Of a DNA stretch of 64,000 nt, positions 17,039 through 59,860 are shown piece by piece (position 1 is the first letter of the stretch; each line of letters begins with the position of its first letter). Under the pieces are notes generated by a model that made no database searches, was not told where the DNA came from, and worked only from the letters and a program-made list of their open reading frames with translations. This stretch comes from Vairimorpha necatrix (taxonomy: Eukaryota): contig CP142730.1 of assembly GCA_036630325.1 (NCBI GenBank), positions 1,116,001-1,180,000 of the forward strand, written 5' to 3'. The position numbers and the translations under genes were made by a program.

Positions 17039-17160
17039 AAATGTCTTTCTCGGGGGACTAAACTTCTCTTTTTTTTCCTCAATTTCGTTCTTTTTTTTTT
17101 TCTTACTTATACACTGGCTTTTAGTAATAAGCTTGTCTTTCTTTTTTTTTCTAGATACAT

Positions 17161-17810: not shown

Positions 17811-18829
17811 ATAATAATATCATCGAAGGCGAGGATGGAATCAGTAATATGCGACAGAAGAAGAATAAATAAAGACACAACCCCTGCTTGGCTGCGTAGA
17901 CAACTGCTTTTGAAGAAGTGCATGTTGAGGAAAATGCTAATAAAATTTGAAACAAGAACCAAATAAAAAGATAGTTAGAACATGTGAAGATCTGATTTAT
18001 TTGAATCCAACTTGAAATGTTCGTCCTTAAGTCATTGGCTAAAGGTGCTAATAGACCCCCCCTCCGAGGGTGTACACTTTATTTTTTAAAACCATAAAAA
18101 CGAAGTGTAAAATAAAGGAGGAGCAGGAAGGGGACAAAAATTACTAAGCACTTATGACATTAAAAATAACAAATAAATATATTTTTATGTACACAATTAT
18201 ATTTTAATACAAGTTTGTATATTCATTTAGATTCATAAGCATTTTTTACCCTTCTGATTTTTTAGAATTGGGGACCAAAACGCCCCCTCTTAGGGTGTTC
18301 ACTTTATTTTTTCGAACCCCAAAACAAAGTGCAAAATAAAGGAGAAGCAATCATTAGCATCTAAATTAGTTGCATCTTTAAACATAAAAAATACCAAATA
18401 AATATACATTTGCGTACGAAATTTAATTTAAAAAAAGATTATAACCATAAAACTATATAATTCTAAATAACTTAACATATTTAAATTAAATTTTTTGATT
18501 TAACAATCTGTATAGATCGTTGAACATTTATTTAAATTTTCTTATATAAATAATATTTATAATTTAATTGTTGGTTTATTATTGTTAAAGACAATTGTAA
18601 GTTAAGGATTAAATTTATTAAATCTATATTCTCAACATCCCCGCGCTAAATTTAGAATTGGGCGATAAAAAAACTTTACTACTTCCTACGTCTACTACTG
18701 GTCTCTCAAAATAAAAGTGCATTTTTATATTAACTGACCATGGGCTGCGCTTTACTCTACCGCGTCATACAATCCCTTCTAATATTGGTCTTCTAGGTAC
18801 TTTCTTTCCCTGTTTTAATACATAAAGTT

Positions 18830-19987
18830 GGCCCTACTAGGAAAATCGACCCCCCAAAAAAATAAATATTTATTGAAAAACCAAACATTTTTCTAGAAGT
18901 AAAGCAAAAGCATGAGGAATTGAATATTTTTTTTTATATTGGCAATGTCTTTTACGCCAAGAAAGTTCTTCTAAAAATTTTGAGATACGATTATGGTTTA
19001 ACCCACTTCTTTTTCTATAATCGTGTTTTAAGTGGGACCAGAAATTTTCAATCTGGTTTGGATGACCACCCTCTCCATTAACAAATCCCTTACTATGATT
19101 TACTATTTCATGCACTGATCCAAAATTAGCCACAGCTTTAGGATATGATGGATATCCATCAGTAACAATAATAGTTCCTGGAAGTATATATTTTTTAAAC
19201 TCTTCTAATAGAGTTTCATGTTTTTTATTAGGAATTAATGAAACAAAAAAATTCGTTCCTTCACCTTCTATAACTCCTCCAAGTATCCATTGTATACTTT
19301 GAGTATCGTCTTGTATAGACGATGGATTATCAATCACTAGACCATTGCATATGGCCGTTTCATCAATTTGAATGTGTGTATTTTCTCCACCTATCTTTTC
19401 AATTCTAAGGAAGTCTCACTTATAATATTCATTAATACATTTTTAAATTCAATGTATGTGGACTCGGCTATCTGACAAAAATTAATAGCCTGATAATTGG
19501 TGTATGAAAAGACCCAACAATACAAGCCCCTTAGAATCTTCTTTTATTCTATATTCGATTTAAAAAATTTGGTGCTTTTTTTAAGGAGCACTTTCTTTTA
19601 CATTTTTTACTTGGGCATTTGTACCCTTTCCCATCAATAGAGGAAGCTGTTTTAATTATTTTCATGTTTCTTATACAAGTATTAGATACACATGGCATAA
19701 CAGGTTTTATTACACCCACTTCTAACAAAAGTGTAATTGCCGTGTCATTATCTTGGAATATAGGATTCTAAGGATCAAGTTCTCCTACCTTTTCTAAAAT
19801 TCCTTCTACTAGCATAATGGGTAAGAAAATGGAAAAAAAAATAAAAAATACCATAGCTTGGAAAATCGACCCTTTAGAAAAAAAAAATAGACAATAGAGT
19901 AAAAAATCGAGAGATTTTTTGATTTTATAGAAGTGATATTTTTTTATACTGTTTTAAGTAGAGGGGGTCGATTTTCCTAGTAGTGCC
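18830..19987 (-). mobile_element. Merlin (IS1595/IS1016-like) transposon with a disrupted transposase
   Basis: TIR GGC(C/A)CTACTAGGAAAATCGACCCC; TSD ATAAAGTT/ATAAAGTC. Confidence 0.92.
18870..19815 (-). pseudogene. Merlin DDE transposase, frameshifted
   Basis: Motifs KIGGENTHIQIDETA, IVTDGYPSY, HEIVNHS, HPNQIENFWSHLK. The 5' part has stops and frameshifts. Confidence 0.9.
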
Positions 19988-21010
19988 ATAAAGTCTATGG
20001 GCATGTGATTATTCTTTACACATGTCTTCCCATCAATGAAATCGAATTTTTTCCGTCTATCTCATTCTTCGACTATAACACAGTTTCTTTTCGATTTTCT
20101 TCTCTTTTTAAATCTCTCTGGATTTTTGAACACTATTGATTCAGCTATCTTGCCACGATAGCTTAAATGTGAATAGTGGAATTAACACTACACTCAATCT
20201 CGACAACTCTTATGTAGATCTTATTACAGTCAATACTGTTTCTCCATAGCTCTTTATAGCTACTTTACGTCTTCACCTATCCGGGTCCCTCGACTGATGC
20301 AAGCCATCACCTTCTCTTCTGTTAGACAACCAACCATCCCCATTCTAACCTAGACTGCATTTTTTACGTCTCATGCTTCGACGGAACTTACGACCTCTTC
20401 TTTTGTTTTTTGTTTGGGTTCAATAATTTTATTCTCCACCATGTTAAAGACAATTGTAATTTAAGGGTTAAATTTATTAAATCTATATTCTCAACAATTA
20501 TAAAGTAGATTTTTGAAGAAAATCTCTTTTTATAATAAACCAAAAATTAAAAAAACTTGAAAAAATAAGAAGGGCAAAAAAGATATAATACTTTAAATGA
20601 TTTTTATAATTAAATTTAAAATTAATTTTCGTATCTAAGCATATATTTATTTGTTATTTTTAATGTAAAAAGTGCTTAGTAATTTTTGTCCCCTTCCTGT
20701 TCCTCCTTTATTTCGCACTTCGTTTTTGGGGTTCGAAAAACTAAAGTGTACACCCTTGGAGGGGGGGGGGGCCTTGGATCCTAGCTCCAAGTCATTATAA
20801 CCCGACCCATTAAATTCTAATATTAAAATATTTGATAATTTTTTAAAAAATTCTTGTATTTTTGTTATTTTCATTAAAAAAACGATATTTTAGATTTTAA
20901 ACATCATGTATTAGCTAAATGTTTTATTTTGATTATAAATACTAACAAATTTTTCTTCATGTCCTCTGTAATAAAGTTTTTTTTTAAAATGAAAGAACAT
21001 AAATCAAAAT

Positions 21011-22742
21011 GGGTACCCGTAAATTCGCCTACAGGCGAATTTACGGTTTTTCGCCAAAAGTTCAAAAATGGTTGTTTTCGCCAAAAATTTTGCCCATAAA
21101 AATTTTCCTTTTTTTTCGCCGAAAATCTACCCTTAAAAAAATGAACGACAACTTTGAAATTTTTAAAGGTCAACGTGGAGGGCAAAATCTTATCTATGAA
21201 GATCAGATATACACTTTAGACTACAATAAGGACGGAACTAGGCGATGGAGGTGCAGTAATAGGTCTTGTAGAGGAGCCATTACAATGAATGAACAAAACG
21301 AAATCGTTAAAAAAGTTATTCATTCACATGAACCAGTACCTGAGAAATGCATGTTTAAAAGAACTATCAAAAAAATAAAAGAACAAGTTGCTACAAGTAA
21401 TGAAAACTCAATAGAAATAATAAAAAAACAACTACCAGCATTGTCAACCAGCTTAGATATTACTAAAATGCCTTCCATAGAATATTTAAGAGATACAATC
21501 AAACGAACAAGAAATTCAAGACTCGGATTTATAACTGGTTGCATTATGGATATACCCGAAGTCTTGCAAGTAGATTCTAAAAAAAATCGTTTTCTTAGAT
21601 TTGATAGTGGTATGCAGGATAATAATAGATTTATAATATTTTTTTCAGAATTCAAAAAAAGTATGATTGAAAAAATAGATACGTTCGTTGTCGATGGAAC
21701 GTTTAAATCTTCTCCTCAAGGATTTTACCAAATTGTCGTCTTTCATGGACATATATTTGGCAAAAGTTTTCCATACATTTATATTCTACTCAAGGGAAAA
21801 AGTGAAAGGTCATATTCTAGAGCCTTCGATAAATGCAAGGAATTAGTTATTATGAATGTTAAGAACTTTGTGACTGATTTTGAGAGAGGATTGGTCAATG
21901 CATTACGAATATCTTTCCCTGGAGCAAACTGTAATGGATGCTTGTTTCATCTTGGGCAGGCAGCCTATAAAAGAGTCGGGGCAATGGGGAACATAGAAAA
22001 GTTTAAAAACGATTCTAACTATAATCTAGTATTCAAAAAGATTCTTCGATTAGCTTTTGTGCCAATACGAGATGTTCCGGTTTTTTATAATGATATTAAG
22101 AAATTTATACAAGATAATTCAATTACAACCACAGCTAACTTTCAGTTATACTTTGAAAATAATTATTTAGTTTCCCATGTAACAAGAGAAGATAATGGTG
22201 GGAGAGCTGTCGCCAATATAAATTTTTGGAATGTATTTGATAGGGTAAAAAATGAAATTCCTCGGACTTCTAACAATGCAGAAAGCTGGAATAGAACCAT
22301 AAACAAGAGGATGGAGACAAGAAATCCAAATATCGCTTTTTTTCTTTCAAGAATACTCGATTGTGAAGAAATGGATATATATAATCTAAAACGTTATAAA
22401 AAAGGATTATTTGAAGCTAAAAAAACCCAAAAAGCGGAGGAAAAAATTAGAATAATCGTTAAAAATTATAAACATTATTCTCGTGAAGAGTACATGAATG
22501 CTTTACTGCAACACGTGAATTTCAAATGCGAATAAGTTAATTCAATAAACCTATTTTTATTATAAATGCTTTTTTTATAACCAATAAATTTTAATTAAAA
22601 TTATAATAAAGCTTTTCAAATCTTTTATTTCTTTCTTAATACCAATAAATTTTTTTTTGTATTTTTTTTTGGCGAAAAACGAGCAAATTTTAATTTTTGG
22701 CGAAAAACCGTAAATTCGCCTACAGGCGAATTTACGGTTATC
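21011..22742 (+). mobile_element. Mutator-like (MULE) transposon
   Basis: TIRs carry the palindrome CCGTAAATTCGCCT-AC-AGGCGAATTTACGG plus TTTTCGCCAAAA repeats. Intact transposase. No TSD found. Confidence 0.85.
21141..22535 (+). CDS. MULE transposase with a FLYWCH zinc finger
   Basis: Motifs WRC..RSC...HSH, VVDGTF, VTDFE, CLFH, RTSNNAESWN. Start follows CCCTTAAAAAA. Confidence 0.93.
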   Translation: MNDNFEIFKGQRGGQNLIYEDQIYTLDYNKDGTRRWRCSNRSCRGAITMNEQNEIVKKVIHSHEPVPEKCMFKRTIKKIKEQVATSNENSIEIIKKQLPALSTSLDITKMPSIEYLRDTIKRTRNSRLGFITGCIMDIPEVLQVDSKKNRFLRFDSGMQDNNRFIIFFSEFKKSMIEKIDTFVVDGTFKSSPQGFYQIVVFHGHIFGKSFPYIYILLKGKSERSYSRAFDKCKELVIMNVKNFVTDFERGLVNALRISFPGANCNGCLFHLGQAAYKRVGAMGNIEKFKNDSNYNLVFKKILRLAFVPIRDVPVFYNDIKKFIQDNSITTTANFQLYFENNYLVSHVTREDNGGRAVANINFWNVFDRVKNEIPRTSNNAESWNRTINKRMETRNPNIAFFLSRILDCEEMDIYNLKRYKKGLFEAKKTQKAEEKIRIIVKNYKHYSREEYMNALLQHVNFKCE

Positions 22743-23999: not shown

Positions 24000-25004
24000 G
24001 GCTAAAGTGAGCTTTAGGTAACGAAAATCGATATAGGGGTTTTTTGCCCCTCTTTTCAAAAATGGAGGAACGAATTCTGACAAGAGAAGAAATCGAAATT
24101 ATATATAATAATTTGTTTAATAAAAACAACCAATATGTACTGTGTGTTATGTTAGGATGAGTTTGGTTATGTAAACGGGATTACCTCATTAAATGTACTT
24201 GGAAGGACTGTAAGAAGACAGTATCTTTATGGAAAGACACTTTCTCTGAAAACAGTAGACTCGATCATATTACAATTTTACAGGTACTTAATTTGTGGAT
24301 TCTTGGCTATCCTCGTAAGAATATTTGTCAATATTTAGGTTGTTCTAAGCGTTCTATATCCTTCATTTAACAAAATTAAAAGAAATAAACATTTTTGATA
24401 AATATTTATCATCTTTGAACAAGATAGGCGGAGAAGAAGTTATAGTAGAAATAGATGAAACTATAATTGGAAAAAACAAATATCTTAGAGGTAAATTAGT
24501 AAAGGGGTTTTGGTGTTTTGGTATGATAGAGCGTTCTCCAGAACGCAAAATTATACTTATATATATTAAAAAAAGAGATAAAGAAACGTTAACAGCTCTT
24601 TCTTTGAAATTTGTAAGTACGAAAAGTACTATATATAGTGATATGTGAAGGGCTTACCATTCTTTGATACAATATTCAATGAACACCACATGGTCAACCA
24701 CTCATTAGACTTTCGAGATCCTAGTACTGGGGTTCATACCAATACCATAGAAGGTAATTGGCGTTCCCTCAAAAATTCTATACCTAATAGAAATAGGTCG
24801 GCAAATAGTGCTAAACTTTATTTATTTAGATACATGCTTCAAGAAATTCAACTAATTCTGTTTTTGATGCATTATTAAATTTATTGTTCTAATCTTTATT
24901 TTTGTTACTTTCTTCAAATTTTCTTTCCTCCATTTTTGAAAAAAGGGGCAAAAAAAACAAATAACCCTATATCGATTTTTGTTACCTAAAGCTCACTTTA
25001 GCCC
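24000..25004 (+). mobile_element. Merlin transposon, second family, with a decayed transposase
   Basis: About 39-bp TIR GGGCTAAAGTGAGCTTTAGGTAAC(G/A)AAAATCGATATAGGG. CAATTATT flanks both ends, so the boundary is uncertain by 1 nt. Confidence 0.92.
24062..24890 (+). pseudogene. Merlin transposase pseudogene
   Basis: Motifs KIGGEEVIVEIDET, TIYSD, HHMVNHS and GVHTNTIEGNW are split across frames. Confidence 0.9.
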
Positions 25005-26646
25005 AATTATTTATTTTTCTGACTTTTACGTTATGTTATGAACACATTAGAATAATATCACGAATCCATGTTCTTTAACCCCTTCTTATTTCTGTATCCA
25101 TTTTGTGCGTACAGACATTGATAGAAAAGAATTATTGTGAATTTTTTCTCTAAAAATCATTTATATTTTAACAAATAAATTTTACTGTAGTAAACAGAAG
25201 ATAAAATAAAATAAACATATTAAAAGGATGAAAAATTTTAAAACTAAAATTATCAGCTATTTATTTAAAATAAAACTAGATAAATATTAGAAAGACTGTA
25301 CAAAAGAAAAAATTTCTCATTTATAATAGATTACGAATATTTAAAATCAATGCTAAATATGTTAGTTTTTTAAAAGAGTATTTGTTTACAAGACAGTTAA
25401 AATTTAAGAATCTTAAAAAAATTCTTTGGGCAAGTAAATAAATTTGAGCGATATTTTGGAAAAATCATAAATGCGCTAAATACAAAATAAAATCATTCAT
25501 ATAAATCATAAGAATAATATTAATAGTGATGATACAACAAACATTTAGTACAATATATATATTAATAATAACGAAGGTAATAACAATGATGGTATTAGTT
25601 ATGATAATATAACAGTTTTTTGTGCTTGCGAATTTTTTTATTAGTTTTCAGATTATTTTTTATAACAATCAATATTCTGATAATTATAGTTCAAATTAGG
25701 TAAAAATCTCATTTTTATATGTAAGTGAGATATCTATTTAATAAATAAATCTTATTTCGGGACATATCCGTATTGTGGTGTAATTAAAAAATAAAACCAG
25801 AAGTACATATTTTATTAGATATTACTTTCAAATTTATAACAAATAAAGCAAGAAGTATATATATAATGTATAGGTAAATTAATCTAAATGTAATTTTAAT
25901 GATTAATATTTTAAATTAAACACTCAAATTCGAAATGAGATTTGTCTTGTTAAAATGTGTAAATTACTTCAGCTTATATTTGTTTTACATTATAAATTAG
26001 TAGTTTTATACAGAAAAAAATTGTATGAAAGAGGTATAAAAAATTTTATATTTTAATAAGAAAGTATTATGAATATATATATACTGTGTTTTATGGTGAA
26101 AACACACAATTCCTCATATTGAAACGTATTGAAATAAATAAAATAGTATATGAAAAAATTATAAACATATTTAGATACAGAATAGCTTAAAATATCATAA
26201 ATTAACTAATGACGAAATATGAGGTATATATATTAAAATAAAATAAATTTTTAATTTTGTAATATACTAATTATGAAGATTTTAATATGAGCATTTAAAG
26301 TATTTAGATAGAAATAATAAAATAATTAATTTATTTATGCAAAGAACATGTTTTTTTATTGCATAAGGTCAAAATTAACATGATGGTATATACAATAAAT
26401 AAAAAGTTATGTATAAAATTATTATTGTCGTAGTTACTTACGCTTAAACCGAGCATTTATAATGCTTGGATATTTCTTTATATTTTTATAATATTTTAAC
26501 CCCATCTTATGGAAGAATAAGCCAATAATACATTTCATTAACAATTATACTTAAAATTTATAGAATTTTAAAGTGGTTCTAGCACATTTGTCGTTTTTTT
26601 TTGATATAATAGAAAAAAATACCCAAAAAGAGCTCCCATTTTAATT

Positions 26647-27417
26647 CTTTGCAAGTATGAGGTAAAGGGAACCCTTAAATACAAGCACGGGAATTTGATT
26701 GTGATTCTTATCTAATTGTTACTATTAGATTCCTACATACAAAAAAATCCGTGTAATTTGCCGAAGCAGCAAACTTCACTGTATACATTAGACTTGAGTT
26801 CAAGAAAATATTGTTCAACCTAAAACTCAAATCGCGTCCAGAGTAATATCATGGTAAATATACTTAACGGTCATAGTTTTCTATAACTCGAAAATATACA
26901 TCGTCGTACTTAATGAAAGGTCCCGACATCGATCTGTATCACGCACGCTTCTTATACCGCCACAAAAGCAACCCGGCATTTTTGTTGGACTACGTTGACA
27001 ACCATTCTCGGCTGATACCGGCTACCTGTTACAGAATCTTGTAAGATAGAGTCAACCCCTTCACATTGCCATATTTTGTTTAGTCTCTCAGTTAACTCTA
27101 GGATCCCACTCTGGAGTGCACCAGCAATGTGGCCCAACTTAGGCCATACCCAGCAGATACTTTTATGTATAATTAAGTCACCACAAGGATGATACAGTTT
27201 TTTGGCCTTAAGTGGCGTTGCTTCACTGGTAGATGCAAATCCCCCAGTGGCTGGACGTACACAAGTTTCATTGAATCAACTTAATGATTATCGTAGACTT
27301 TTTCATCATCTGAGTTGTTCAACTGCACCATAGAAATAGAAACATCCTGGCGCTTTCGAGAATCGAACACAGTCTTGCTCAATGATCGCATCGCCTTCGA
27401 CCACTGGACTGGAGCTC
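26647..27417 (-). mobile_element. tRNA-derived SINE-like element, copy 1 (diverged, near full length)
   Basis: Colinear with 56290-57071 from the CTTTGCAAGTA tail to the tRNA-like head (B-box-like GTTCGATTC on the minus strand). Confidence 0.85.
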
Positions 27418-27546
27418 TTATTTTATCTTTACTGTGTGTTCAAATATATTCTTCTTAGTTTTGCCTTTCCAGTCTTCCTCATAAGAATATTCGTTTTAGC
27501 TCTTCGTTTCTGCTTTTGATTTATGCTGCTTTTTTTTTCTTTACCC

Positions 27547-28149
27547 ATGAATAAGGAAAATGAGTTACTCTTGATGATTAATAATCTTGAGATGGCTTAC
27601 AATCCCGAGTCCCCTAATTACAAATTTAGATTTGTTTTCTACAATAAAGTCTCTTCTCCCTTTCTCAGGCCTGTAGATTTCCCTGAAAAACTCTGGTTTA
27701 ATGCTCTTAAAAAGGACAATACACTAATGCCTGTCTTATTGAAAGGCAAGGAGATAGAATTGAGAAGAAAAAATCAGTTAGATACGCTGAGCAATCTAAA
27801 TATGTCTTATTCCTTCTTACAGAGCAGGATAGACGAGTTGAAGCTCAAGTCCGAGAGGATAAGAAGCAAGTTACAGAGTTCTCTTGTAGTGTACAGGAGA
27901 CTAGTGCACAGTGTCTACAATAAATGTAGAGCAAGGAAGAATAATTGTAATCTCATGAATGATATTAACAAGATCAATACGGAGATAGAGAAAGAAGAGA
28001 TGGAAATCGGGGATAAGAAGAAAGAAGTAGTAATGTATTTATTAGAGATAAAAGGGAATTTACATAAATTGATCAAAAAGATCGATGAAGATTTGTATGA
28101 GCACGAGAGGAAGATTTATGTATTCCAGAATATAAATAAAATAACATAA
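27547..28149 (+). CDS. Nucleoporin Nup54/Nup57-like
   Basis: AYNPESPNYKFRFVFYNKV...KLWFNAL...LMPVLLKG...RRKNQ followed by a coiled coil. CCC-ATG at 27547. Confidence 0.75.
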   Translation: MNKENELLLMINNLEMAYNPESPNYKFRFVFYNKVSSPFLRPVDFPEKLWFNALKKDNTLMPVLLKGKEIELRRKNQLDTLSNLNMSYSFLQSRIDELKLKSERIRSKLQSSLVVYRRLVHSVYNKCRARKNNCNLMNDINKINTEIEKEEMEIGDKKKEVVMYLLEIKGNLHKLIKKIDEDLYEHERKIYVFQNINKIT

Positions 28150-28216
28150 TTTCTAGAAAATATGTCATATGTTAAATTTATAAAAATAAATATTAGCAAA
28201 TTTCTTTTAATTTTGT

Positions 28217-30307: not shown

Positions 30308-32170
30308 TTAATATAAGTGCGACTCCTTAAGGAATTCTTTATAACTATCATAAACCATAATTTCATTATTATAAATTCCTAAAATCTTATCAAATTTCTC
30401 TAAAAGAACATGTTTATGAATTATCGCTATAACTGTCTTATCTGATAAATAAGTATGCATCTTATCAATGAGATTTAACTCAGACTTGGGATCCATGTTG
30501 GCAGTTGGCTCATCTAAAATGAAAATATCTCCATTTTTGATAACACCTCTTAAAAAAGACATTCTTTGTTTTTCTCCACCACTTAAAAATTTTCCATTGT
30601 CGCCTACATCCCGATTTAAATCTTTAAAATTCATATCGTACAAAGTACAAAGCTTCAAAATGTCAGTCTCACTCAGATTCTGACTGTTGTACAATAAATT
30701 GTCTGTTATCGTACCACTTAAAATTCCAGGTATTTGTGGAACAAAAGAGATTTTATCTCTTTGATCAATTTTATAAATATTTCTCATTTCTTGATTATCA
30801 ATAAACAAAGAGCCTTTATAATCCCTGTACCTTAAGAAAACATTTACTAAGGTAGATTTACCTACTCCATTTTTGCCAACTAATCCTACTTTTTCACCTT
30901 TTTTTATTGTAAAATTTGCCGGATTAGTTAAAATTCTATCTTCAATACACAAAACAAAATCTTGAAATTTGATGTGTTCATTTAATACAAATTTCTCTCT
31001 TCCATCTCCATTTATTTTCACTTTCTGTGTCTCTATTATTGTTTTTTTTATAATATCGAAATCTTTAATGTCTCTACTTGAAATATTTTTTATTAATACG
31101 GGTTTCTGATCTTTTATTTCAACTGTTTGTTCTATATTTTTAACTTCTATGTCTCTATTATCAGTATGTTTGTATTCAAAATACATTTCCATATTTTCAA
31201 TATCATAACGTATTTCGTCCCAGTCATTATTTCTAATATCTGTGTAATATTGGGAAAGCATAGTGTAGTGGGTTTTCAAATGATTAAATTTAGATTTTAA
31301 CTCACAGAACAGCTTGTTAAACAAAATAAACTCTGCTGCGTTTTTTATATCGAGATAAGCATTCTTTTTTAACATTAAATAAAAAATAAACCCATTAGGT
31401 ATTATCACGACACTTCTATTAATAAAACCACCAAATGAAGACAAAAACGCGGAAAAAATACCATAATATCTTATATTTCTGAGTTGTGTATCGAAAATTT
31501 CTATTTCTTTGCTTTCATTATTAGTAGCCTTAATAATATCATAATTATAAATAATTCTATACAAATTTTTAATGACTTTGTCATATTTCTCTGTATATTT
31601 ATTTCTAATAACATTCCTGAACTTAGTTATCGGGACTGTTAAACTTACTACTGTTACTAAAGCACTCAAAGAATAAAGTGTAAGATATATATTAAAATAA
31701 ATATACATCATAACGATAACTGAAATAGCAAATGATAAATTATAAGAAAAAGAAAATAATAAAAGATGAAAACCATGAACATAATGAAAAACTTTTCTGT
31801 CTATAATACTTCTAATACTTGATGGACCAATTTTATAATAAGTCGCTTGATTAAGATTTAAAGCTTTTAAAATGTAAAAACATATACAAATCCTGTAACA
31901 TTTAGTCAAAAAATAATCAGAAATTATTGGCAACAAGTACACAACAATGTAGACACCTAAAATCTTAGCTGATTTAGTCATAAGAAGTTTGACACATTCA
32001 TCTTTTTTTGAGAAATTTCCAATATTTTTCAATAATTCAATTTCATCAAAAAAAGCAGTCACTTCAACATAAGCGAACATTGTAACTAAAGCTAAAACTA
32101 CAAATACAAAACTTTTATAAATTTTGTAATCATTTAGAAAATTAATCAATATTTTCAAATCTTTATTCAT
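30308..32170 (-). CDS. ABC half-transporter (ABCB/ATM1-like)
   Basis: TM domain plus GKNGVGKS, LSGGE, ILDEPT. CCCC-TA-ATG start. Confidence 0.9.
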   Translation of the reverse strand: MNKDLKILINFLNDYKIYKSFVFVVLALVTMFAYVEVTAFFDEIELLKNIGNFSKKDECVKLLMTKSAKILGVYIVVYLLPIISDYFLTKCYRICICFYILKALNLNQATYYKIGPSSIRSIIDRKVFHYVHGFHLLLFSFSYNLSFAISVIVMMYIYFNIYLTLYSLSALVTVVSLTVPITKFRNVIRNKYTEKYDKVIKNLYRIIYNYDIIKATNNESKEIEIFDTQLRNIRYYGIFSAFLSSFGGFINRSVVIIPNGFIFYLMLKKNAYLDIKNAAEFILFNKLFCELKSKFNHLKTHYTMLSQYYTDIRNNDWDEIRYDIENMEMYFEYKHTDNRDIEVKNIEQTVEIKDQKPVLIKNISSRDIKDFDIIKKTIIETQKVKINGDGREKFVLNEHIKFQDFVLCIEDRILTNPANFTIKKGEKVGLVGKNGVGKSTLVNVFLRYRDYKGSLFIDNQEMRNIYKIDQRDKISFVPQIPGILSGTITDNLLYNSQNLSETDILKLCTLYDMNFKDLNRDVGDNGKFLSGGEKQRMSFLRGVIKNGDIFILDEPTANMDPKSELNLIDKMHTYLSDKTVIAIIHKHVLLEKFDKILGIYNNEIMVYDSYKEFLKESHLY

Positions 32171-33041: not shown

Positions 33042-34763
33042 ATGAATGAAGACCATAAGACCTTGACTTATCAACAGTCTATAAAGTACACTTTAAATTT
33101 CATTTACCATAATCCATTATTTAAAATAGTATTAGTTCCAATAATATTATTATCAGTAGCAGCTGCTACATTCGGAATTGTAGTATTGGAAGTTATAACA
33201 GACATAGAAAAATATTTTGTATGTGATTTGAAGTCTGAAAGTGCTTTCAATTTGATGATTAGGTACATGTCTGCCCCCTTTTTTCATTATATTTTAATTA
33301 TGTTAAATGATGTTATTGTTGCGTTCTTTATTTCTTCTGTTCTAAGACAAGCCTTTTGCGCATTTACTAATGAATATGTCTTAGTTAATTACGACAAATT
33401 TCACTCTCTCGGGTCTGGACAGATACACGCTATAATACAAAGAAGATTAATAGCAATAGAAGAATTTATTAGATTATTAATTACAAGCGTATTACACGAT
33501 TTTATATATGTTTTTGTAGCATTTAGTAAAATGTTTACTGACATAGAAAAAAGATTATTTTATTCAAATGTCGCAATGTTCGTTTTTTATTTAATAATAA
33601 TTTATTATATCATGAAAATGAGAGTATCTTTTAGATTGAAGTTTAATCAAGCTTATAATTTAGTCTCAAACACATGCTATGGCATTTTAACTAATTATGA
33701 CGTCATCAAGTCATATACAAATGAAAAATTAGAAATAAAAAATTTAGATAAAAAACTGGAAGTAGTACAAGATAAAAGTATAGTATTTGATTGTTTAACC
33801 ACATTTGCTGAATTAATACAGAAAATAGCACTGGTTATTCCCAATGGTCTGATTTTATATTTAGGGATGTGTAAAATTTTTTTCGTCGAACTAAGTGCGG
33901 CCGGGAAATATTCGTTATATAATAAAATATTTTTAGAAGTTAAATCTAAAATAGCCAAAATAACTCAAGATTCATTAAAAATCACAAGATATTTGACTGA
34001 TATTTCTGATTCCAGAATAGTAGAAGCCAAATTAGACGAAGAATATAAAGGCCTGCCTATAGACACTTTTAAAAGATCTATAGTATTAAAAAGGGTATCT
34101 TTTTATATAAAAGACATAAAAATATGTTCTAATGTTAATTTGACGATTTTTAAAGGTGAAAAAGTAGCGATAGTGGGTAAAAATGGCAGTGGTAAGTCAA
34201 CTTTGTTTAATGTTTTACTAAGAATGAGGGACTACAAGGGAAGTATTCGTATTGACGATATGGAAATGAGTAATATTTCCAAATATGATCAAAGGCAAAT
34301 AATTTCTTATATTCCTCAGAATCCTGGTATAAAAGAAGGCACTATTCTTGAGAATATTAAATATGGCAAGGAAGATGTTACGAATGAAAAAATTATCCAA
34401 ATTTGCAAAGATTTTGGATCTCATAAAATATTTTCAGAGTTGCCTGATGGATATGAAACTGAATGCGGGGAAATGGGCAAGTACCTAAGTGGAGGACAAA
34501 AACAGAGACTTAGTTTTATAAGGGGAGTTATAAAGAATGCAGACATTTTTATCTTTGATGAACACACATCCAATTTGGACACGTCTGGTCAAAGGGAGTT
34601 AGTAGATTACATTTTTACTTTATTAAAATTCAAAACTTGTCTCGCAATTTTACACAATCAAGAAGAATTGCCCAAATTTGATAAGATCATTGGGCTATCT
34701 AATGGGAAAGTTAGAGTATATGAAAGTTATAATTCTTATTTAGAAGACATTCATTTATATTAA
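33042..34763 (+). CDS. ABC half-transporter (ABCB/ATM1-like), divergent paralog
   Basis: Motifs GKNGSGKS, LSGGQ, IFDEHT. Shares IPNG and the terminal HLY* with its neighbour. Confidence 0.9.
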   Translation: MNEDHKTLTYQQSIKYTLNFIYHNPLFKIVLVPIILLSVAAATFGIVVLEVITDIEKYFVCDLKSESAFNLMIRYMSAPFFHYILIMLNDVIVAFFISSVLRQAFCAFTNEYVLVNYDKFHSLGSGQIHAIIQRRLIAIEEFIRLLITSVLHDFIYVFVAFSKMFTDIEKRLFYSNVAMFVFYLIIIYYIMKMRVSFRLKFNQAYNLVSNTCYGILTNYDVIKSYTNEKLEIKNLDKKLEVVQDKSIVFDCLTTFAELIQKIALVIPNGLILYLGMCKIFFVELSAAGKYSLYNKIFLEVKSKIAKITQDSLKITRYLTDISDSRIVEAKLDEEYKGLPIDTFKRSIVLKRVSFYIKDIKICSNVNLTIFKGEKVAIVGKNGSGKSTLFNVLLRMRDYKGSIRIDDMEMSNISKYDQRQIISYIPQNPGIKEGTILENIKYGKEDVTNEKIIQICKDFGSHKIFSELPDGYETECGEMGKYLSGGQKQRLSFIRGVIKNADIFIFDEHTSNLDTSGQRELVDYIFTLLKFKTCLAILHNQEELPKFDKIIGLSNGKVRVYESYNSYLEDIHLY

Positions 34764-45471: not shown

Positions 45472-46434
45472 TTATTCTAAAATATCAAAATATTCTTTTT
45501 CCTCGGAAGAGTTTTCAAATTTAACATGATTATGGTACAGAATAAGCTGCATGAGTGTTTTTTTAAAAAATCCATTTTTAAAGTCACAATCTTCTTTTAC
45601 GTACCAGTCCATGTTTTTTTCAACTTCTTTAATAATTAAGTCTTTTTCAAATAAGTGAAAGAAAGCACCCTCTGATCGTAAATCTATTAATTGATATTTA
45701 TAATTTTTTTTGTCAATTTTCGGATCATATCCAAATGAAACCCAGCAATTTCTAAATGGACCATCCATTACATAATATCTAAACATTGATATAATAGTTT
45801 TAATTTTTTCAGCTGCTATATTCAATTTTTTTGATTTTTTATATTCTTGAAATAATGCTTTAATTACAGAAAATGGCAGTATTAAGCACGGCAAACTATT
45901 TATAAAATGGCTAATGTCTTCGTCTACTTCTTCGTTATACAGCGGACTTACCGGAATTTTATCATTATAATAAACTCTTACACTTTCTGTTTTATTTTTA
46001 TATAATATTGTGTTTTTTGTTATCGTAAGTATTTTTGGTGTCATTTCATAATGATTAATAATCGGTGGATAGTATGGTGGAAACTTTTCAATTGTTATTT
46101 GACTTGTATCAAGTAAATTTGTAATATTACCGTCTATGAAAACATTACCTAATTTATTTTTAAACGCTAGGAAATCTGTATTATCAATATAAAAATCGAG
46201 AGGTCCTTCGAACTCGTATAAATTTGTTGTATGACCAATAATGTTTACATTATTATCTTCTATGTTTAATAGTAGTAATAAATCAGTGTTTCTTTTTTTT
46301 GTGGCATAAATCTTTTTAGAATCTAGCGTATCCATAATTCTAAATTCTATTTTATATTTATTGTAATGAAATATTAGTTTTGTATTTTCTCTGATTTTTA
46401 AAGGATAGTCGATAACATCAAAATTATTTTTCAT
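45472..46434 (-). CDS. TFIIIC subunit tau95/Tfc1 (GTF3C5-like)
   Basis: VIDYP near the N-terminus; YYVMDGPFRNCWVSFGYDPK...YQLIDLR. GGG precedes the ATG. Confidence 0.85.
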   Translation of the reverse strand: MKNNFDVIDYPLKIRENTKLIFHYNKYKIEFRIMDTLDSKKIYATKKRNTDLLLLLNIEDNNVNIIGHTTNLYEFEGPLDFYIDNTDFLAFKNKLGNVFIDGNITNLLDTSQITIEKFPPYYPPIINHYEMTPKILTITKNTILYKNKTESVRVYYNDKIPVSPLYNEEVDEDISHFINSLPCLILPFSVIKALFQEYKKSKKLNIAAEKIKTIISMFRYYVMDGPFRNCWVSFGYDPKIDKKNYKYQLIDLRSEGAFFHLFEKDLIIKEVEKNMDWYVKEDCDFKNGFFKKTLMQLILYHNHVKFENSSEEKEYFDILE

Positions 46435-49955: not shown

Positions 49956-50260
49956 AAAATTTAAAAATTTTGTTTTAATATAGAGATAAATTGAAAACGG
50001 ACATCAAATTGTTTTAAGTGATAGAAATATGTAGATAAGATTTTCATGCAGCAAAATATTGAAAAAGATATTGATATTGCAGTTCTTTACTATGAGATCT
50101 ATGGGATAACTCATAATTCCTGAAATTTATGTTAGTAAATAAGATAGATGGTATCTCACATGTGTAATTTTCTTTTTGTATTTTTTAAAAAATGATCATA
50201 TCAAGTGAAAGGTTTGTCTTTCGATTTAACTTTTTTAATTTTCTAAATATAATATAAATA

Positions 50261-51099
50261 GGAGGTGGGGTACTTTAGACCCCCCCCCTTTGAAGCGCTT
50301 CAATTTTTTTTTCGAACCCCAAAATTGAAGTGCAAAAAAAAAGAGGAGCAAGAAAGGGACAAAAATTTCTTATCACTTTAAACAAAAAAAATACAAAATA
50401 AATATATATTTATGTACACAATTATATTTTAATACAAGTTTTTACAATAATATAAACCAATAAGCTAATTTTGCCCTTCTGATTTTTTAGAATTGGGGAC
50501 AAAAACGCTCCCCTCTGAGAGTGTTCACTTTATAATTTTGAACCCCCAAAAACGAAGTGCAAAATAAAGGAGAAGCAATCATTAGTACTCAAATTACTTG
50601 CATCTTCAAACAGTAAAAATACCAAATAAATATATATTTGTATACGAAATTTAATTTAAAAAAAGATTATAACCATAAAACTATATAATTCTTTATAACT
50701 TAACATATTTAAATTAAATTTTTTGATTTAACAATATGTGTAGATCGTTGAACATTTATTTAAATTTTCTTTTATAAATAATATTTATAATTTTAATTGT
50801 TGGTTTATTATTAAAGTAGATTTTCTTCAAAAATCTACTTTAATAATAAACCAACAATTAAAAAAAATTGAAAAAATAAGAAGGGCGAAAAAAGACACAA
50901 TACTTCAAATGATTATTATAACTAAATCTAAAATTAATTTTTGTATAAAAGCATATATTTATTTGTTATTTTTAATGTTTAAAGTGATAAGAAATTTTTG
51001 TCCCTTTCTTGCTCCTCTTTTTTTTTGCACTTCAATTTTGGGGTTCGAAAAAAAAATTGAAGCGCTTCAAAGGGGGGGGGTCTAAAGTATCCTTCACCC
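50261..51099. mobile_element. Long-TIR MITE, uninterrupted copy (839 bp)
   Basis: GG..CC ends, about 150-bp TIRs, 9-bp TSD ATATAAATA at 50252-50260 and 51100-51108, an internal TIR-like copy and a central hairpin. Confidence 0.92.
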
Positions 51100-51889
51100 A
51101 TATAAATATTATAAAAAATCATTAACTATATAATTAAAAAATTACAAAAGCAATTTTATGCTTAAAATGGTAAGTTTTTTCAGAAAAGCTATTAATAACA
51201 TATTTTGCTTTCCAAGCCCAACTTCAATGTAATTTGTAAGTAATTTTATTTATCTAATTATTAAATATACATATGTTCCAAATTTATATATATAGAATGT
51301 GTCCATGAACTATGTACTTCGTTTCATATTTATGTAATATTAAATATTTTCTATTATTGCTGATGCTGTAATATTTAAAGAATAATTTGCTCATTATGTT
51401 ATAAAAAATTTTTCTTTCTATAATGATTAGTTATTTATGAGATACAAGACAAATTTTATTTATGAAGTAAATCAAACATTTTTCATTTTTCTTTTAGCAA
51501 TTAATCATTATTTAAAAAACGTAAATACAAATTAATTAACCAGAAACGTTATTGCAAATAATCAAATGAAGACCGATTCTGTTTCATTATTATTTGGCAA
51601 AATAAACACCACTAAGTTATTTTGACTCGCATTTTTTAAACGAAATTCTTTAAGATTTTAAGCTATTTTATGCATACATAATTTTTTAAATATAAAACAA
51701 AGTATTTTAATATCAACCCCGCGTGTTAATTATATATTCTCTTTGTTTGATGACAGTTGTTTTGTATATTGATCATAGCATAAAAAGATTTTTTTTAATA
51801 ATTCAATTATAAATAAATTAAAATATATAAAAACATCTTAAAACATAAATATACCTGATATAATCAATTTGGTAAAATGTCTCACTTAT

Positions 51890-53054: not shown

Positions 53055-53937
53055 ATAAAATTTTATGTATAACATTTTTATCTTTAAGGAGCTTATATGG
53101 TAAAATGTTGTTCTCAAAACATTTGCGTCTAACGTAATTCTATTTGCTTGCATATATTAAATTCAAATCTTAGACATTTTTCCAGAATCAGATAATATTT
53201 CATGTTGATTATTTGTCGAAAAAAGAATGAATTTATTTAAATTTAGTTAATTAATTTTTAAAATTATTTATTACATTTGCAATGGACTTACCTTGTAAAT
53301 TTGCTGATTGAATGATTATATAAAATCTGAAAAATTTCATAGCATCAACTTTTTTAAAACATATATTATAAATGCAAAACGATTTAATAATTTTTAATTT
53401 TTCGTTAGACATAAAGTAATAAATTTTCTGGCAATAAGGTTAAAATGGTATTATTTTACTTCATAAACGTCTTAAAATTTTTTAGTTAAATTCAATTCGG
53501 TATTATGTTTTCACCAAATATTTCTTGCATGCAGTATTTTTATAAATAACAGAGATTGAATGATACTAATATTTGATTTTTCAATTATACAATTACTATT
53601 GAATTAACAATATTGGAAGATTTTAATTTTTATTTAAATTTACTAACAAAATTACTCATTTAGTTCCAATTCAAAGCATAAATGGCAGTGTTACTTTCAA
53701 ACGTTTTGTTGCGTAAGATTCAGGAAATCTCTGTAAATATATAATACAAAAAGTATCCGTTATATTATATTCTTAGATAAGAGTTCATAGGATTCGTATT
53801 TTTATGATCGACATGCTTGATTAATGTCTTTAAATTTCTATCGCATTCATATACTACATTTTTTTCTCTTCACGAAAATGCTTAAAAACCATTTCAGAGA
53901 CCAAATAATTTTAAATCTGGACCCCAGACAAGTGAAG

Positions 53938-54627
53938 TTGTGAGATTTGCTTTATTTTATACTTCCTAAATATAATTTGCCGGCATAGAAGCTCCGCCCA
54001 TCCATTGGATTTTAGTTATTGACAGAAGTTTTTTATTTATACTTCAAATCGCATCCAGAGTGACCTCACAGCAGATATTCAGAAAAATTATGGTTTCATA
54101 TACCCGGGGAAATGCTTTATAATATACTTTTACTTCTCACAATTATGGCATTGCACATACAGCATCTTACATGGGGCATCGCTAACCCGGCATTTTCATT
54201 GAAATGCATTGACCGCCAATGACCTACTAGTGACAGCTTTCGTGCTTTAGAATTTAAAGTCCAGATTTAACAACGGCCCAACATTCTCTTTAACGTCAAG
54301 CCTCTTAGATAGACTAGGATTACACAATAGAGCAACCAGCTATGTACAAACTAGGTCGTTCTGAACAGATACCTTTATACACCATTAAGCTATTACACGA
54401 ATGATAGTGTTTTCGAGCGTAAAGCGCGTATGTATATTAGCTGCAAGTCCCTCTATTCAGAATGCCCAGATGTTTATTTTATTCACTTAATGATTATCGT
54501 AAACATTTACATCATCTATGCTTATAAAATTGTACCATTTACATTAGAAACATTTTAAGGCTTTGGGATTCGAATGCAGACATTGCTTAATGAAAGCATC
54601 GACTTCGAACACTCGACTAAGGGCTCC
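53938..54627 (-). mobile_element. tRNA-derived SINE-like element, copy 2 (most diverged)
   Basis: Shares AAGCTCCGCC..TCCATTGGA, TCAAATCGC.TCCAGAGTGACCTCACAGC, CCCGGCATTTT and CTTAATGATTA.CGT, plus a tRNA-like head at about 54555-54627. The 3' end is unclear. Confidence 0.8.
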
Positions 54628-55471
54628 TTACGATTTACATCCTCGTAGTTCGGGCGTTTTATAATTTTTTTCTTCATTCTTATTATATACGACGTTCAAA
54701 TATTTAGAGACTCCTAATTATTAATAACCAAAAATTAATTAATTGGTTTATTTTTTATTCAATCTGAAACAAAAGTTTGCAGTCTGTCTTATTTATATTT
54801 TTTAAGGAAAACTAAATTCTCCTACGGGAATTTTCTTTTGCGTCTTTCTAATATAAAGAAAAGAAAAATTTAGGATTGACAATGCATTATAAAGTACTAG
54901 TTGCAGTGTAATGTTATTAATATTTCTAAATGTTACTTATTTATGTTATAAAATAGATAAAACACTAGGCCGCCAGAAAAGCATTTCTTTTATTGATCAT
55001 AGTACAAAAAAAAATTACACTAGAGGAGATAGTTAACGATAGCCCCAAATTTGTTAATTTTTCTATTTAAACAATGAAGCTAAAAAAGCATTAGCGAGAT
55101 AAAGATGCTAATTATGAGCATTTAAATATTGAAAAATTAGAATGGGTGCAAGAACACGAAACAAAATTTATTTTCAAAATTCCAAATATACTAATGCTAT
55201 AATATGTATTTCCTTTTATTTTGTTTATTATTAATAATGTTTTGTATATTATGATTAAATCTAAAAAACCACCTTGTGGTATCCACCACTGAGGAAAGTA
55301 TTTAAAATATTTTTATTATTCATTTTATGCTTCCTTTCCATTATTCCGTACCCCTCTCCAGATAAAATATTTAAATAAATGTTGGAGGGAAAACGGGTCG
55401 AATTTGGAGGGAAGATTTTAGAAATATATTTTATGATATTTGGTATATCATAATCTGCCTCTCCTTTTGCT

Positions 55472-57565
55472 TCAAAGTTTACTATCAACCAATTTTTCAT
55501 ATCCCGGTATTATATTAGATACTATATCTGGAGGCTCTTCTATTGTATTATTAACATCATTATTTATAGTTTCTAACCTATTTTTGGTGTTTATATTATC
55601 CAATGTAGCTATCATCCTCTTTCTTGTTTTAAAAGTCTTCAATAGTTTTGATTTACCAAAGTATTTTACTTTATACAGAATTTTCTCGCGATTTTGCTTA
55701 TTTTCACCTTCGCTGTTTTCTATATTGTCTTTCAATACATTGTCCCCGAGGGTTGATTTTTTAGCTCTTACTATTATCTCTTCGAGTTTCTCGTTTTTAA
55801 CTTCCTTGGCTTGTGGTTTTTTAGCGGTATCTGTGCTCGCTTCTTTAATTTCATCTGCGTTAACCCATTCTCTTTATGTAACTCGCTGTTTTTGATGTAG
55901 TGGTCTATTTTTTCGGCAGTTTCAATGCTTTTATTTTCCTCACTTATGGATAAGCAGTTTTGCATTAGCAAATCTTTATTTTGTGTGGCTTCATCTGTCT
56001 TCATGTTGTTATTCTTATTTTTATTACTTTTATTTTTCTTAAAGCAATCACTAGTATTATGAGTTCTTGATCGATGCAAACTACACCATCTATTCCCATC
56101 CTCTCTATGGTTTGGTTCTTTGACCTCGACTCGGTTATTCCTTATTAAGACTACATCATTTCGAATTCTAGCTACTAATTCTTTCTCCAAGCTTACCAAT
56201 AGATAAATAATGTCTTTAACATTCGTAGTATTTAATTTCAGAACATAATCTTTTGTATCTTCAGATAAATTTTTTTTTTTTTTTTTTTTCTTTGCAAGTA
56301 AGAGGTAGGGAGAAACCTTACATAGGGACCAGAGGGATTTGGGTGTGATCCTTTTCCAACTGGTACTGTGAGATTCTTACTCACTAAAACTCCCTCCGTA
56401 TAACTTGCCGGTGCAGCAAGCTCCGCCGTATCCATTGGACTTTGGCTCCAGGAGAACACTTTCCATTTATACCTCAAATCGCGTCCAGAGTGACCTCACA
56501 GCGGATATACTTAACGGGCATGGTTATCTATAACCCGAGGAGAGACATCATCGTACTGACTCAAAGGTCCCTACAATCATCTGTATCGCACACACGGCTC
56601 CTTACACGACCACATCCCCAGCCCGGCATTTTTATTGAACTGCGTTGACCACCAGTCTCCCACTAGTTTCGGCCACCGTGTTACAGAATCATGTAGGATA
56701 GGGTCCACGAGACCTTCTATTGCCCTACTTCGTCTAGTCTCTTAGTTAGCTCTAGGATCCCACTCTAGAGTGCACCAGCCATGGGCTCCAACTAGGCCGT
56801 ACCCATTAGATACTTTTATGCATCATTAAGTCACCAAAGGGCGATACTGCTTTTTGGCCTTGAGGTGCGTTTCTACACTAGATGCTAATCCCCTTGTGGC
56901 TGGACACACACAAGTTTCATTGAATCAACTTAATGATTACCGTGGACATTTTCATCATCTGAGTTGTTCCAACTGCATCATAGAAAGTAGAAACAATTTG
57001 GTGCCCCTGGGACTCGAACCCAGCCCATTGGTCAATGAGAACATCCCTTCGACCACTCGGCCAAGGGCACCTTATCTTCAGATAAAGCATTTAGACAGAT
57101 TTCATTAAATCTTCTCTCATATTCCTTCTTAGTATATTTTTCTAAATAAGATGCCACTTCAAGTTTGGCATAAATATCATTTATCATATCTTCTATCAAA
57201 ACATAATTAGATTGTTTAATTTCTAATAATTTAATTCCTACATTTGAAAAGATTGTATGTGGATAGGCAACAGTTAATATTTCTTCCTTACCCCTCATAT
57301 AAGACTTTCAATTGTTCTTTCTTTTCCATTCTTTACTTTCCACTAGATTTTGTAGCACTAACAGATTCTCTTCATCGCTCCATTCTATTTTCTTACTCAA
57401 TTCTTCAAATTTTCTGAACCATTCTAGCATATTGGTTCCTTCAATACAGTTTATTATTTCTAACTGTTTTATAATAGGCTCTTTTAGGCCCTTGACTTTG
57501 ATCTCAAAGCTGATCGTGTCTTTGGATTCATAAGTCTTTATCCTTTTGTTTAGTATAGGATACAT
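55472..57565 (-). pseudogene. Retrotransposon gag, frameshifted and interrupted by a SINE
   Basis: MLEWFRKFEELSKKIEWSDEE and zinc knuckle WCSLHRSRTHNTSDC. Fragments lie in several frames. Confidence 0.8.
56270..57072 (-). mobile_element. tRNA-derived SINE-like element, copy 3 (full length)
   Basis: tRNA-like head at 57000-57071 (A box TGGCCGAGTGG, B box GGTTCGAGTCC), A20 tail at 56270-56289, TSD TATCTTCAGATAAA at 56256-56269 and 57073-57086. Confidence 0.92.
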
Positions 57566-59860
57566 CTTCGTTAAATTTAACTTGTGGTATCCACCACTGA
57601 GGAAAGTATTTAAAATATTTTTATTATTCATTTTATGCTTCCTTTCCATTATTCCGTACCCCTCTCCAGATAAAATATTTAAATAAATGTTGGAGGGAAA
57701 ACGGGTCGAATTTGGAGGGAAGATTTTAGAAATATATTTTATGATATTTGGTATATCATACACCTCTAAAGCATTATAAATAGTATAATTGAATATCTGA
57801 CAAGTATACAACGATTAAATTTTACTTAGATTCTACAATTGTTTTTATAGTTGGCGCGTTGCACAGGATGCGGCTTGTTCTTAAGTAATACTCCAAAGAA
57901 CTACATGTTTGCCCGTCTGTCGCTGGCAGGCTTTTCTAAATTTTTAAATATTTGTTTATTAGTATTGTTTTCCTTGTAAAAAATTCCTTTCTTGAGGTCA
58001 AAAATAAAAATTCTAAAAATAAGAAGGAGGGAGAATATTTTGTAGTTGTAAAATACATCATATAAGAAAAAGAGATGTAATATGTGGTCATAATTCCATA
58101 ATAGTGTAGAAATATGCCTTGTTTAAATATTCGTATAGTCCACAAGATATGGGGCGGATATATTTTTCTATGGAAAAATCAAAATTTGTATCCAAATATA
58201 ATTTAATTATTTTATACTTTAGAAATGGTTTTCAATTACAGTTCGCTTCGTTTCTTTTTTAAATCATTTTTTAGAGCAAAAAAATATTAATGAAAGACCT
58301 TAAATAAAAGGGAATGCTCGCCTCCCTTTGGCCTATTCACAGCCTTTTAGAATTTTGATGACAAATAATTTATTTGTTGTAGAACAAACATTTCTATGGT
58401 TTATGTACGCGTATATTTATGTGCTAGCTTATATACTTTCCAACAAGCTTTGTGAATCTTACTTGATGTATTCTCTCTTAAAATGAATCTTAACCCCATT
58501 TATTGTAATAAACACCTATGATATAGACCCCCAAGGAATAAATCATAAAAATAATATTCTTATTACTAAATATACTACTTTTTAGTTTTTTTTTGCTGCT
58601 TATTAGTGAAATTACTATGCAAGATGCATACAACTTGACTAAAGATTTCAACTCGGGAAACTTTTAATTTGAAATTTCCAAAAATATATTAAATAATATA
58701 TTATATTGCTATATAAAAGGTGACACGTTAATAATAATAGGATGAGAAGATCTAAATTTTTGTAAACAAAATAACGTTACTTTGTTAAAAACTATTTTTA
58801 TAGTTTCATACAAATATTTTAGTCTAGATAATAAAATGCACTACAAATATCACTTTTACAACGATATATCTTTGCTTAAATATTTTTATTAGTTGGTTTA
58901 GTTAGTTGTAGCAGTTAGTCATAAATAAGAATATATTCAATTTTTTGTCTTGTGTCTCATTTATATTGTCCTATAATTATATGTAGTAGAAAAAAATATA
59001 AATCTTACGGAATCGAGATTAAATGCTCAAAATTCATAGTAAAACTTTTATAAATTATAATTTAAACAAATTTGACCAAATATACAAATTATCTGTAGCA
59101 ATATAATACAGAAATTGTTAAAAAATCAAATGTTTTACATCTATTTTTATTAGAATTGTTTCGGCGAATCAAAATATTAAAACTACGAGATTACAAAACA
59201 AAACAACTCAATAAGAGTATAACTTCTGCTATCTATTATTTGATACTTATATTTTTATATTTGATATTAATACTCACAAAAACATGAATAACAGAACATG
59301 TTAGATAATAATCACTTTAAAACATGATTTTAGAATTTAATCCTTACATATTGCTATTTTTTTATAAAAATTCGTATTTGCTAAACAATCAATTTGTAAA
59401 TTTAAAATATTTCATAAAAATTACTAAAATATCAAAAATCAAATTTTCGGATAAAAAAAACTGACGATTTCTGAAAAAACCAATTTTGGTAAAATATAGT
59501 TCTTCCTGGCTTATGTGTTGTTTCTCATCTATTTTGCGGCTTTAACCGTTTGTTGTAGAGGCGCTATCCCTGGGTGCAATAACTTTCTTGATCTTAGTCT
59601 TAGGACAACGCTGACTGTTCTATTTTCTAAACAGGATGTAGGCTAAGAAGTAAAAAACAATAGATAATGATTTTTTAGAAAATACCATTCCTAATGTCAA
59701 TTCTGAAAAAGGTAAATTGCAAAAATAAAACAAATAATTTATGACATACTTAATGTTAACAATACTATCGTGATATTTTCTATTAGTAGTTTAAAAACTA
59801 TTTTTATGCTTTCAAATTAATTTTTTACGTGATCTTAAAATTTTCTAATTTTTATCCCAT

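Follow-up and report, generated by a model that had tools for sequence, protein, structure and literature searches.

A tRNA-like-headed, A-tailed repeat family, probably a SINE, with one recent-looking and two old copies in a 64-kb region of the Vairimorpha necatrix genome

The stretch of DNA analysed here, called the window below, comprises 64,000 nucleotides of the microsporidian Vairimorpha necatrix (assembly GCA_036630325.1, contig CP142730.1, positions 1,116,001 to 1,180,000 of the forward strand). Its genes are closely spaced and uninterrupted. The best named relatives of the queuine tRNA-ribosyltransferase encoded in it belong to Nosema granulosis (66%), Encephalitozoon (58-60%) and Ordospora (57%), which identifies the DNA as that of a microsporidian from this group. 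Two half-size ABC transporter genes, at 30308-32170 on the minus strand and 33042-34763 on the plus strand, are arranged divergently and represent an old inverted duplication, their DNA being weakly similar (72% over 180 bp). Mobile DNA of several kinds is also present. An ORF of 508 aa at 21009-22535 (plus strand) encodes a transposase with MULE and FLYWCH domains. Terminal inverted repeats, each about 75 bp long (21014-21087 and 22666-22740), bracket it, and the whole has the appearance of an intact transposon of the Mutator-like type. Fragments of Merlin-type transposase genes occur at 18873-19415, where the DDE_Tnp_IS1595 domain is recognised, and at 24349-24645. The first of these fragments is adjoined by a set of short repeats (18056-18583, 20497-20770 and 50248-51113), in direct and inverted orientation and 74-87% identical; these probably represent either the terminal repeats of Merlin elements or MITE-like sequences derived from them.

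The family described in this work is represented in the window by three copies, of which copy A is an 803-nt unit occupying 56270-57072 on the minus strand. Read along that strand, the locus starts with the 14-bp sequence TTTATCTGAAGATA (57073-57086), followed by one extra A at 57072 that separates this duplication from a tRNA-like head of 73 nt (56999-57071). The head passes into a non-coding, G+C-rich body of 709 nt (56290-56998), whose 3' end reads ...CTTACTTGCAAAG (also ...CTCTTACTTGCAAAG); the body is succeeded by a tail of 20 A residues (56270-56289) and then by the second TTTATCTGAAGATA (56256-56269). The initial annotation had described at this place a tRNA-headed, poly(A)-tailed unit of about 800 bp ending in ...CTTACTTGCAAAG(A)20 and bracketed by a perfect 14-bp target-site duplication, and all of this is borne out by our reading of the sequence. 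The span it gave, 56256-57086, is correct as to place, but it counts in both duplications, the element proper being 56270-57072. The two duplications are identical at 14 of 14 positions. When the downstream flank was shuffled 300 times, this match was never equalled, and the A20 tract is the sole homopolymer longer than 11 in the window. A polyadenylation signal is absent near the 3' end of the copy. The target adjoining the tail reads TTTATC... and offers no T-rich primer of the L1 type. Self-comparison of the element revealed neither terminal direct or inverted repeats nor internal repeats within it.

Copy A is nested in a small, apparently young, gag-only LTR-like element (55273-57760, minus strand), which is delimited by direct repeats of 180 bp (55273-55452 and 57581-57760) that are 100% identical. 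AGGTG is found at both outer edges of this host element, and a purine-rich AAAAGGAGAGG is located just ahead of its 3' repeat. The target-site duplication translates as LSED in the same frame on either side of the insertion (...NEICLNALSED/K... upstream and ...NLSED/TKDYVLK... downstream), so that an open gag-like ORF has been split by copy A with no decay since. The preservation of this frame, together with the identity of the host repeats at 180 of 180 positions, makes copy A look recent. The part of the host ORF at 55777-56256 (minus strand) contains a knuckle-like motif C-x2-H-x4-H-x4-C, the usual gag knuckle of retroelements being C-x2-C-x4-H-x4-C; Pfam recognises nothing in it, and no homologue of similar length was found for it in the protein search. 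The full HMMER scan with this ORF part yielded five weak matches, the best of which (E=3.2e-6, 36% identity) covers residues 208-287 of a 654-aa polyprotein in which an aspartyl protease and RVT_1 come next; the remaining four carry no Pfam domain. Since the matched region is situated directly upstream of the protease and RVT_1, the ORF can be attributed to the gag-like region of a Ty3/gypsy-type polyprotein. The host element measures about 1.66 kb after subtraction of copy A and encodes the gag-like ORF only, with neither protease nor reverse transcriptase, which suggests that it is a non-autonomous derivative of a Ty3/gypsy element.

The head of copy A (56999-57071, minus strand) is the sole ARAGORN call in the window, where it is reported as tRNA-Met(CAT)-like. 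In the ARAGORN structure the acceptor stem, GGTGCCC with GGGCACC, is paired at 7/7 positions and the T arm at 5/5, but the anticodon stem at only 3/5. An A-box-like sequence TGGCCGAGTGG (57053-57063) and a B-box-like sequence GGTTCGAGTCC (57010-57020), both on the minus strand, fit perfectly the A-box consensus TRGCNNAGTGG and the B-box consensus, respectively. The arrangement of the end of the A box and the B box, formulated as AGTGG-N(25-45)-GGTTCGANNCC, has this single match in the window and was not encountered in any of 100 shuffles. The Rfam tRNA model, in its turn, does not match the head either at the gathering score or at E<=1, and the sole Rfam match of the head is to the tRNA-like mascRNA model, at a sub-threshold score (28.6 bits, the cut-off being 42.5). 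The head is therefore to be called tRNA-like and not a tRNA gene: the suggestion of a tRNA-like head made in the initial annotation holds for the acceptor stem, the T arm and the A and B boxes, but not as far as the Rfam tRNA model is concerned. A genuine tRNA gene is ruled out by the absent Rfam tRNA match, the incomplete anticodon stem and the body that is directly continuous with the head. The tRNA-like structures mascRNA and menRNA likewise combine a reduced anticodon arm with a retained acceptor stem and T arm; they are located, however, at the 3' ends of long vertebrate Pol II transcripts, whereas here the head is the 5' end of a mobile unit, and the likeness, with its score below the curated cut-off, is one of shape only. 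In the alignment, the CAT triplet is kept in the heads of all three copies. In copies B and C, both boxes of the head carry mismatches, and ARAGORN calls neither of these heads.

The G+C content is 0.47 for copy A as a whole and 0.458 for its body, compared to 0.272 for the window. Among 20 stop-free segments of at least 25 aa in copy A, no significant Pfam match was found (one match, E=0.024, is at chance level), nor was any obtained with the longer ORFs of either copy A or copy B. The indels that distinguish the copies are mostly of 1-2 nt and mostly not multiples of three. These data agree with the earlier description of the body as more G+C-rich than its flanks (0.46 versus 0.27) and devoid of a credible ORF. 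Rfam found no match in the body of copy A, and the folding z-scores of this copy are -1.4 for the sense and -2.2 for the antisense strand (20 shuffles each). The sense strand thus folds no better than its shuffles and the antisense strand only slightly better, and for this reason the idea of a strongly structured RNA was dropped. Of all the features of the element, only the G+C-rich body, set in a genome rich in A+T, still wants explanation.

The only T4 run in the sense strand of copy A is at position 683, and T runs of greater length are absent. The genome has about 13 such runs per 782 nt; the mean is 1.17 in dinucleotide shuffles of the element (P(<=1)=0.68) and 2.46 in mononucleotide shuffles (P=0.27). 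The scarcity of T4 runs relative to the genome is thus a consequence of the G+C content of the element and is not separate evidence. The initial annotation counted this run correctly, but took it as a sign of Pol III transcription, and that step does not hold, the number of runs being not lower than the composition of the element predicts. It is the intact A and B boxes of the young copy that speak for the predicted transcription by Pol III. A TFIIIC tau95-like gene (PF09734, E=3.9e-13) is located in the window at 45472-46434 on the minus strand, and the factor that reads the A and B boxes is therefore present.

A profile built from the three copies has exactly three matches in the window, all of them full length, and there are no fragments. 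All the copies are on the minus strand: copy A is matched at 56290-57071 (profile positions 2-784), the older copy B at 26647-27419 (positions 4-784) and the oldest, copy C, at 53866-54627 (positions 1-784), the last two having been delimited by BLASTN and the profile together. Pairwise identity is 0.77 for A and B, 0.66 for A and C, and 0.60 for B and C. Both of the additional same-strand copies indicated earlier are thus real, but copy C does not stop at 53938 and runs to 53866, about 70 nt more. The homology among the copies does not extend beyond head and tail; their flanking sequences are unrelated. The anatomy of a LINE-type retroposon (a tRNA head, an A tail and a target-site duplication), which had been proposed for this family, is complete in copy A, and the three full-length copies with unrelated flanks conform to it. 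The tails and duplications of the other two copies are less clear. Copy B has a short A-rich 3' end and a candidate duplication TAAAATrrGAGCTC at 27412-27425 and 26630-26643 (TAAAATAAGAGCTC and TAAAATGGGAGCTC), which matches at 12 of 14 positions (P=0.077 in shuffles) and overlaps bases that can also be read as the start of its head. Copy C is directly followed by a run of seven A (53859-53865), and no target-site duplication is detectable around it in the shuffle test (P=0.84). Loss of the duplications is to be expected at 23-34% divergence, so that in this respect copies B and C neither support nor contradict the assignment of the family to the SINEs.

A repeat of about 0.7 kb, present on the plus strand at 17152-17821 and 27445-28153 (85.5% identical, with an ORF of about 208 aa that has no Pfam match), begins in its second copy 25 nt from the head of copy B. 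We considered this pair as a paralogous empty site for copy B and rejected it: the repeat stops before the element, and lenient alignment merely added weak similarity. Beyond the window, two conserved patterns of the element, 30-33 nt long, had no match in bacterial and archaeal contigs, a result that was to be anticipated and carries little information, and a blastn comparison of the element with plasmids and phages also returned no match. A spurious antisense ORF of 92 aa, taken as a proxy for the number of copies, had no match in the protein collection, the window's own copy included.

The three copies differ in composition in the order of their age. The G+C content falls from 0.47 in copy A to 0.41 in copy B and 0.37 in copy C, towards the 0.27 of the window, and the number of sense-strand runs of four or more T is 1, 5 and 4, respectively. 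Among the changes private to copy B, 47 are strong-to-weak and 27 weak-to-strong. Copy A has 33 apparent private changes from weak to strong, which by our own estimate from the counts is close to the number expected from parallel loss of G and C in copies B and C, and the pairwise identities roughly fit two independent decays from an A-like source. The simplest picture is that of a G+C-rich source that has changed little, to which copy A is close, with copies B and C decaying toward the composition of the genome. Copy A looks like a recent insertion and the other two look old. The family had been called recently active in the initial annotation; this claim hangs on one young copy, and a clear duplication and a long tail are found in copy A alone.

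A partner LINE was sought in the window. No reverse transcriptase or endonuclease domain was detected in 54 of its 63 ORFs of at least 85 aa (the scan omitted nine that are overlapped by larger ORFs on other frames), and BLASTN found no sequence in the window that shares the 3' end of the element other than the copies themselves. LINEs are on record in related parasites: 4-15 families are given for four Nosema species in table 1 of PMC4202319, and table 2 of PMC3614468 has 'Dong-R4' and another LINE fraction for N. bombycis.

Judged on its sequence, the family is probably a non-autonomous, tRNA-like-headed, A-tailed retroposon mobilised by a LINE, that is, a SINE, represented in the window by one recent insertion and two old ones. 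What can be read directly at the three loci is the anatomy of the unit, its discrete boundaries, three ages of copy, the in-frame split of the host ORF and the pattern of decay; Pol III transcription, a LINE partner and current activity are inferred. According to the model we propose, Pol III would transcribe a source copy with the A and B boxes inside the head as promoter, starting no more than a few bases upstream of the head, and the transcript would cross the body of about 710 nt, which has no T run longer than four, and continue into an A tail encoded by the source copy. That the tail is encoded in the source is suggested by its length and purity and by the lack of a polyadenylation signal close to this end of the unit. 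A LINE located elsewhere in the genome would then supply the endonuclease that nicks the target and the reverse transcriptase that copies the RNA by target-primed reverse transcription, and a staggered second nick would produce the 14-bp duplication. New insertions would be inactive from the start and would drift toward the A+T-rich composition of the genome. The support for the SINE reading is incomplete. Against it stand the lack of reverse transcriptase and endonuclease domains in the scanned ORFs of the window, the marginal or missing duplications and the short tails of copies B and C, the absent Rfam tRNA match with the incomplete anticodon stem, and the target beside the tail of copy A, which offers no T-rich primer. 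Moreover, the lone T4 run at position 683 could halt Pol III ahead of the tail, and Pol III would here have to make a long transcript, of about 800 nt.

The alternatives to this model can be weighed on the same data. The family could consist of retropseudogenes of a cellular gene for a long non-coding RNA with a tRNA-like head, kept G+C-rich by selection and copied by a LINE, in which case the copies would be a by-product of a host gene and not a selfish SINE. Copies B and C have diverged by 23% and 34%, whereas the source has seemingly changed little and kept its high G+C content; processing enzymes recognise a tRNA by its acceptor stem and T arm, and in the youngest copy this half is perfect while the anticodon arm is not; and the best Rfam match is the tRNA-like mascRNA model. 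That match, however, is under the curated cut-off, the fold is no stabler than shuffles on the sense strand, a conserved source would be equally predicted by a SINE master gene, and the window holds no candidate source gene free of duplication and tail, which leaves this possibility improbable in our opinion. A transfer of the family from an animal host, instead of a native origin, concerns where the element came from and is compatible with the SINE mechanism. It would account for a body of 46% G+C in a genome of 27%, and transposon exchange between microsporidia and animals is documented (PMC4202319, PMC3614468); nevertheless, copies that have diverged by up to 34% imply a long stay in this genome, and we regard such a transfer as unlikely, though not negligible.

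Two further possibilities appear much more remote. Chimeric retrogenes likewise show the head of a small RNA joined to an A-tailed body and a bordering duplication, so the family could descend from a one-off chimeric retrocopy, formed when reverse transcriptase left a poly(A) RNA template for a tRNA, and then multiplied by segmental duplication. This is very improbable, because the junction of head and body and the ends of the unit are common to all three copies while the flanks are unrelated, and because copy A has its own perfect duplication within a different element; the same facts disfavour segmental duplication as such. A chimera may still have been the first origin of the family. Lastly, the unit could be non-autonomous and belong to the LTR elements, the DNA transposons or the Helitrons, carrying a tRNA-like piece by chance. 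PMC10886601 includes published examples of non-autonomous LTR elements with tRNA-like sequences, and the window itself is rich in DNA transposons, as its MULE and Merlin-type transposase domains demonstrate. Against it, the element possesses no terminal direct or inverted repeats, the 180-bp repeats near copy A belong to the host element, and an A20 tail with a 14-bp duplication contrasts with the 4-6 bp produced by LTR elements. Membership of the body in an LTR or DNA element, which the initial annotation had named as the finding that would overturn its interpretation, therefore seems scarcely credible.

Taken as a SINE, the family can be compared with two groups of known elements. The long pure A tail, the duplication of about 14 bp, a length that is variable in such systems, and the lack of a polyadenylation signal are shared with the tail-dependent SINE/LINE pairs of the Alu type, described in mammals, in which the LINE requires only the A tail of the SINE. 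In contrast to Alu, the head here is tRNA-like and not derived from 7SL, and the primed strand of the target lacks a T-rich stretch beside the tail. The other group is formed by the fungal SINEs (Foxy, Mg-SINE, mgsr1, Egr1 and EGH24), which also have a tRNA-related head with an internal promoter and are non-coding and dispersed. In the account given in PMC5063351, these elements are present in tens to hundreds of copies, with lengths of 470-900 bp that bracket the 803 nt found here; Foxy of Fusarium oxysporum and Mg-SINE of Magnaporthe are listed there as tRNA-derived, and the long SINE-like elements are mgsr1 with 800 bp, Egr1 with 700 bp and EGH24 with 900 bp. The element had been described as long for a SINE, and this is right with respect to the common length of less than about 600 bp, but there are fungal precedents of 700-900 bp, which make the limit of about 600 bp a soft criterion. 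Unlike the fungal SINEs, compared here by description only, our family resides in a microsporidian genome of 27% G+C and has a body far richer in G+C than its surroundings.

We found no characterised microsporidian SINE in the full-text literature, which supports the view that SINEs are poorly described in these parasites. One table has an undescribed and unnamed 'SINE' fraction of 0.18% in Nosema bombycis (PMC3614468), and for another microsporidian species no SINE is reported (PMC11585130). The term 'SINE' is absent from the main text of the microsporidian repeat surveys PMC4202319, PMC7313128 and PMC12449221; the family may figure in the repeat tables that supplement PMC7313128 and PMC3614468.

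The finding adds a new case to a class of mobile DNA that is well known, and does not change the general understanding of SINEs. It is conceivable, and we advance it tentatively, with somewhat more doubt than confidence, that we are dealing with the first characterised SINE family of Microsporidia, still active: an 800-nt Pol III retroposon with a tRNA-like head, whose source has kept a G+C content of about 46% and an intact 'top half' of acceptor stem and T arm in a genome of 27%. If this were true, it would point either to selection on the RNA, be it for stability, for recognition by the LINE enzymes or for a function in the host, or to a transfer from an animal host.

Microsporidia are a textbook case of genome reduction, and the repeat surveys devoted to them list LTR elements, LINEs and DNA transposons, with no SINE anatomy. 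From this point of view, a young SINE insertion would show that a LINE reverse transcriptase is active in trans, now or very recently, in the parasite, that type-2 promoters of Pol III are able to drive a mobile RNA of 0.8 kb, and that such elements break open reading frames. The presence or absence of SINEs at individual loci would at the same time provide homoplasy-poor markers for the history of strains and species in the Nosema group.
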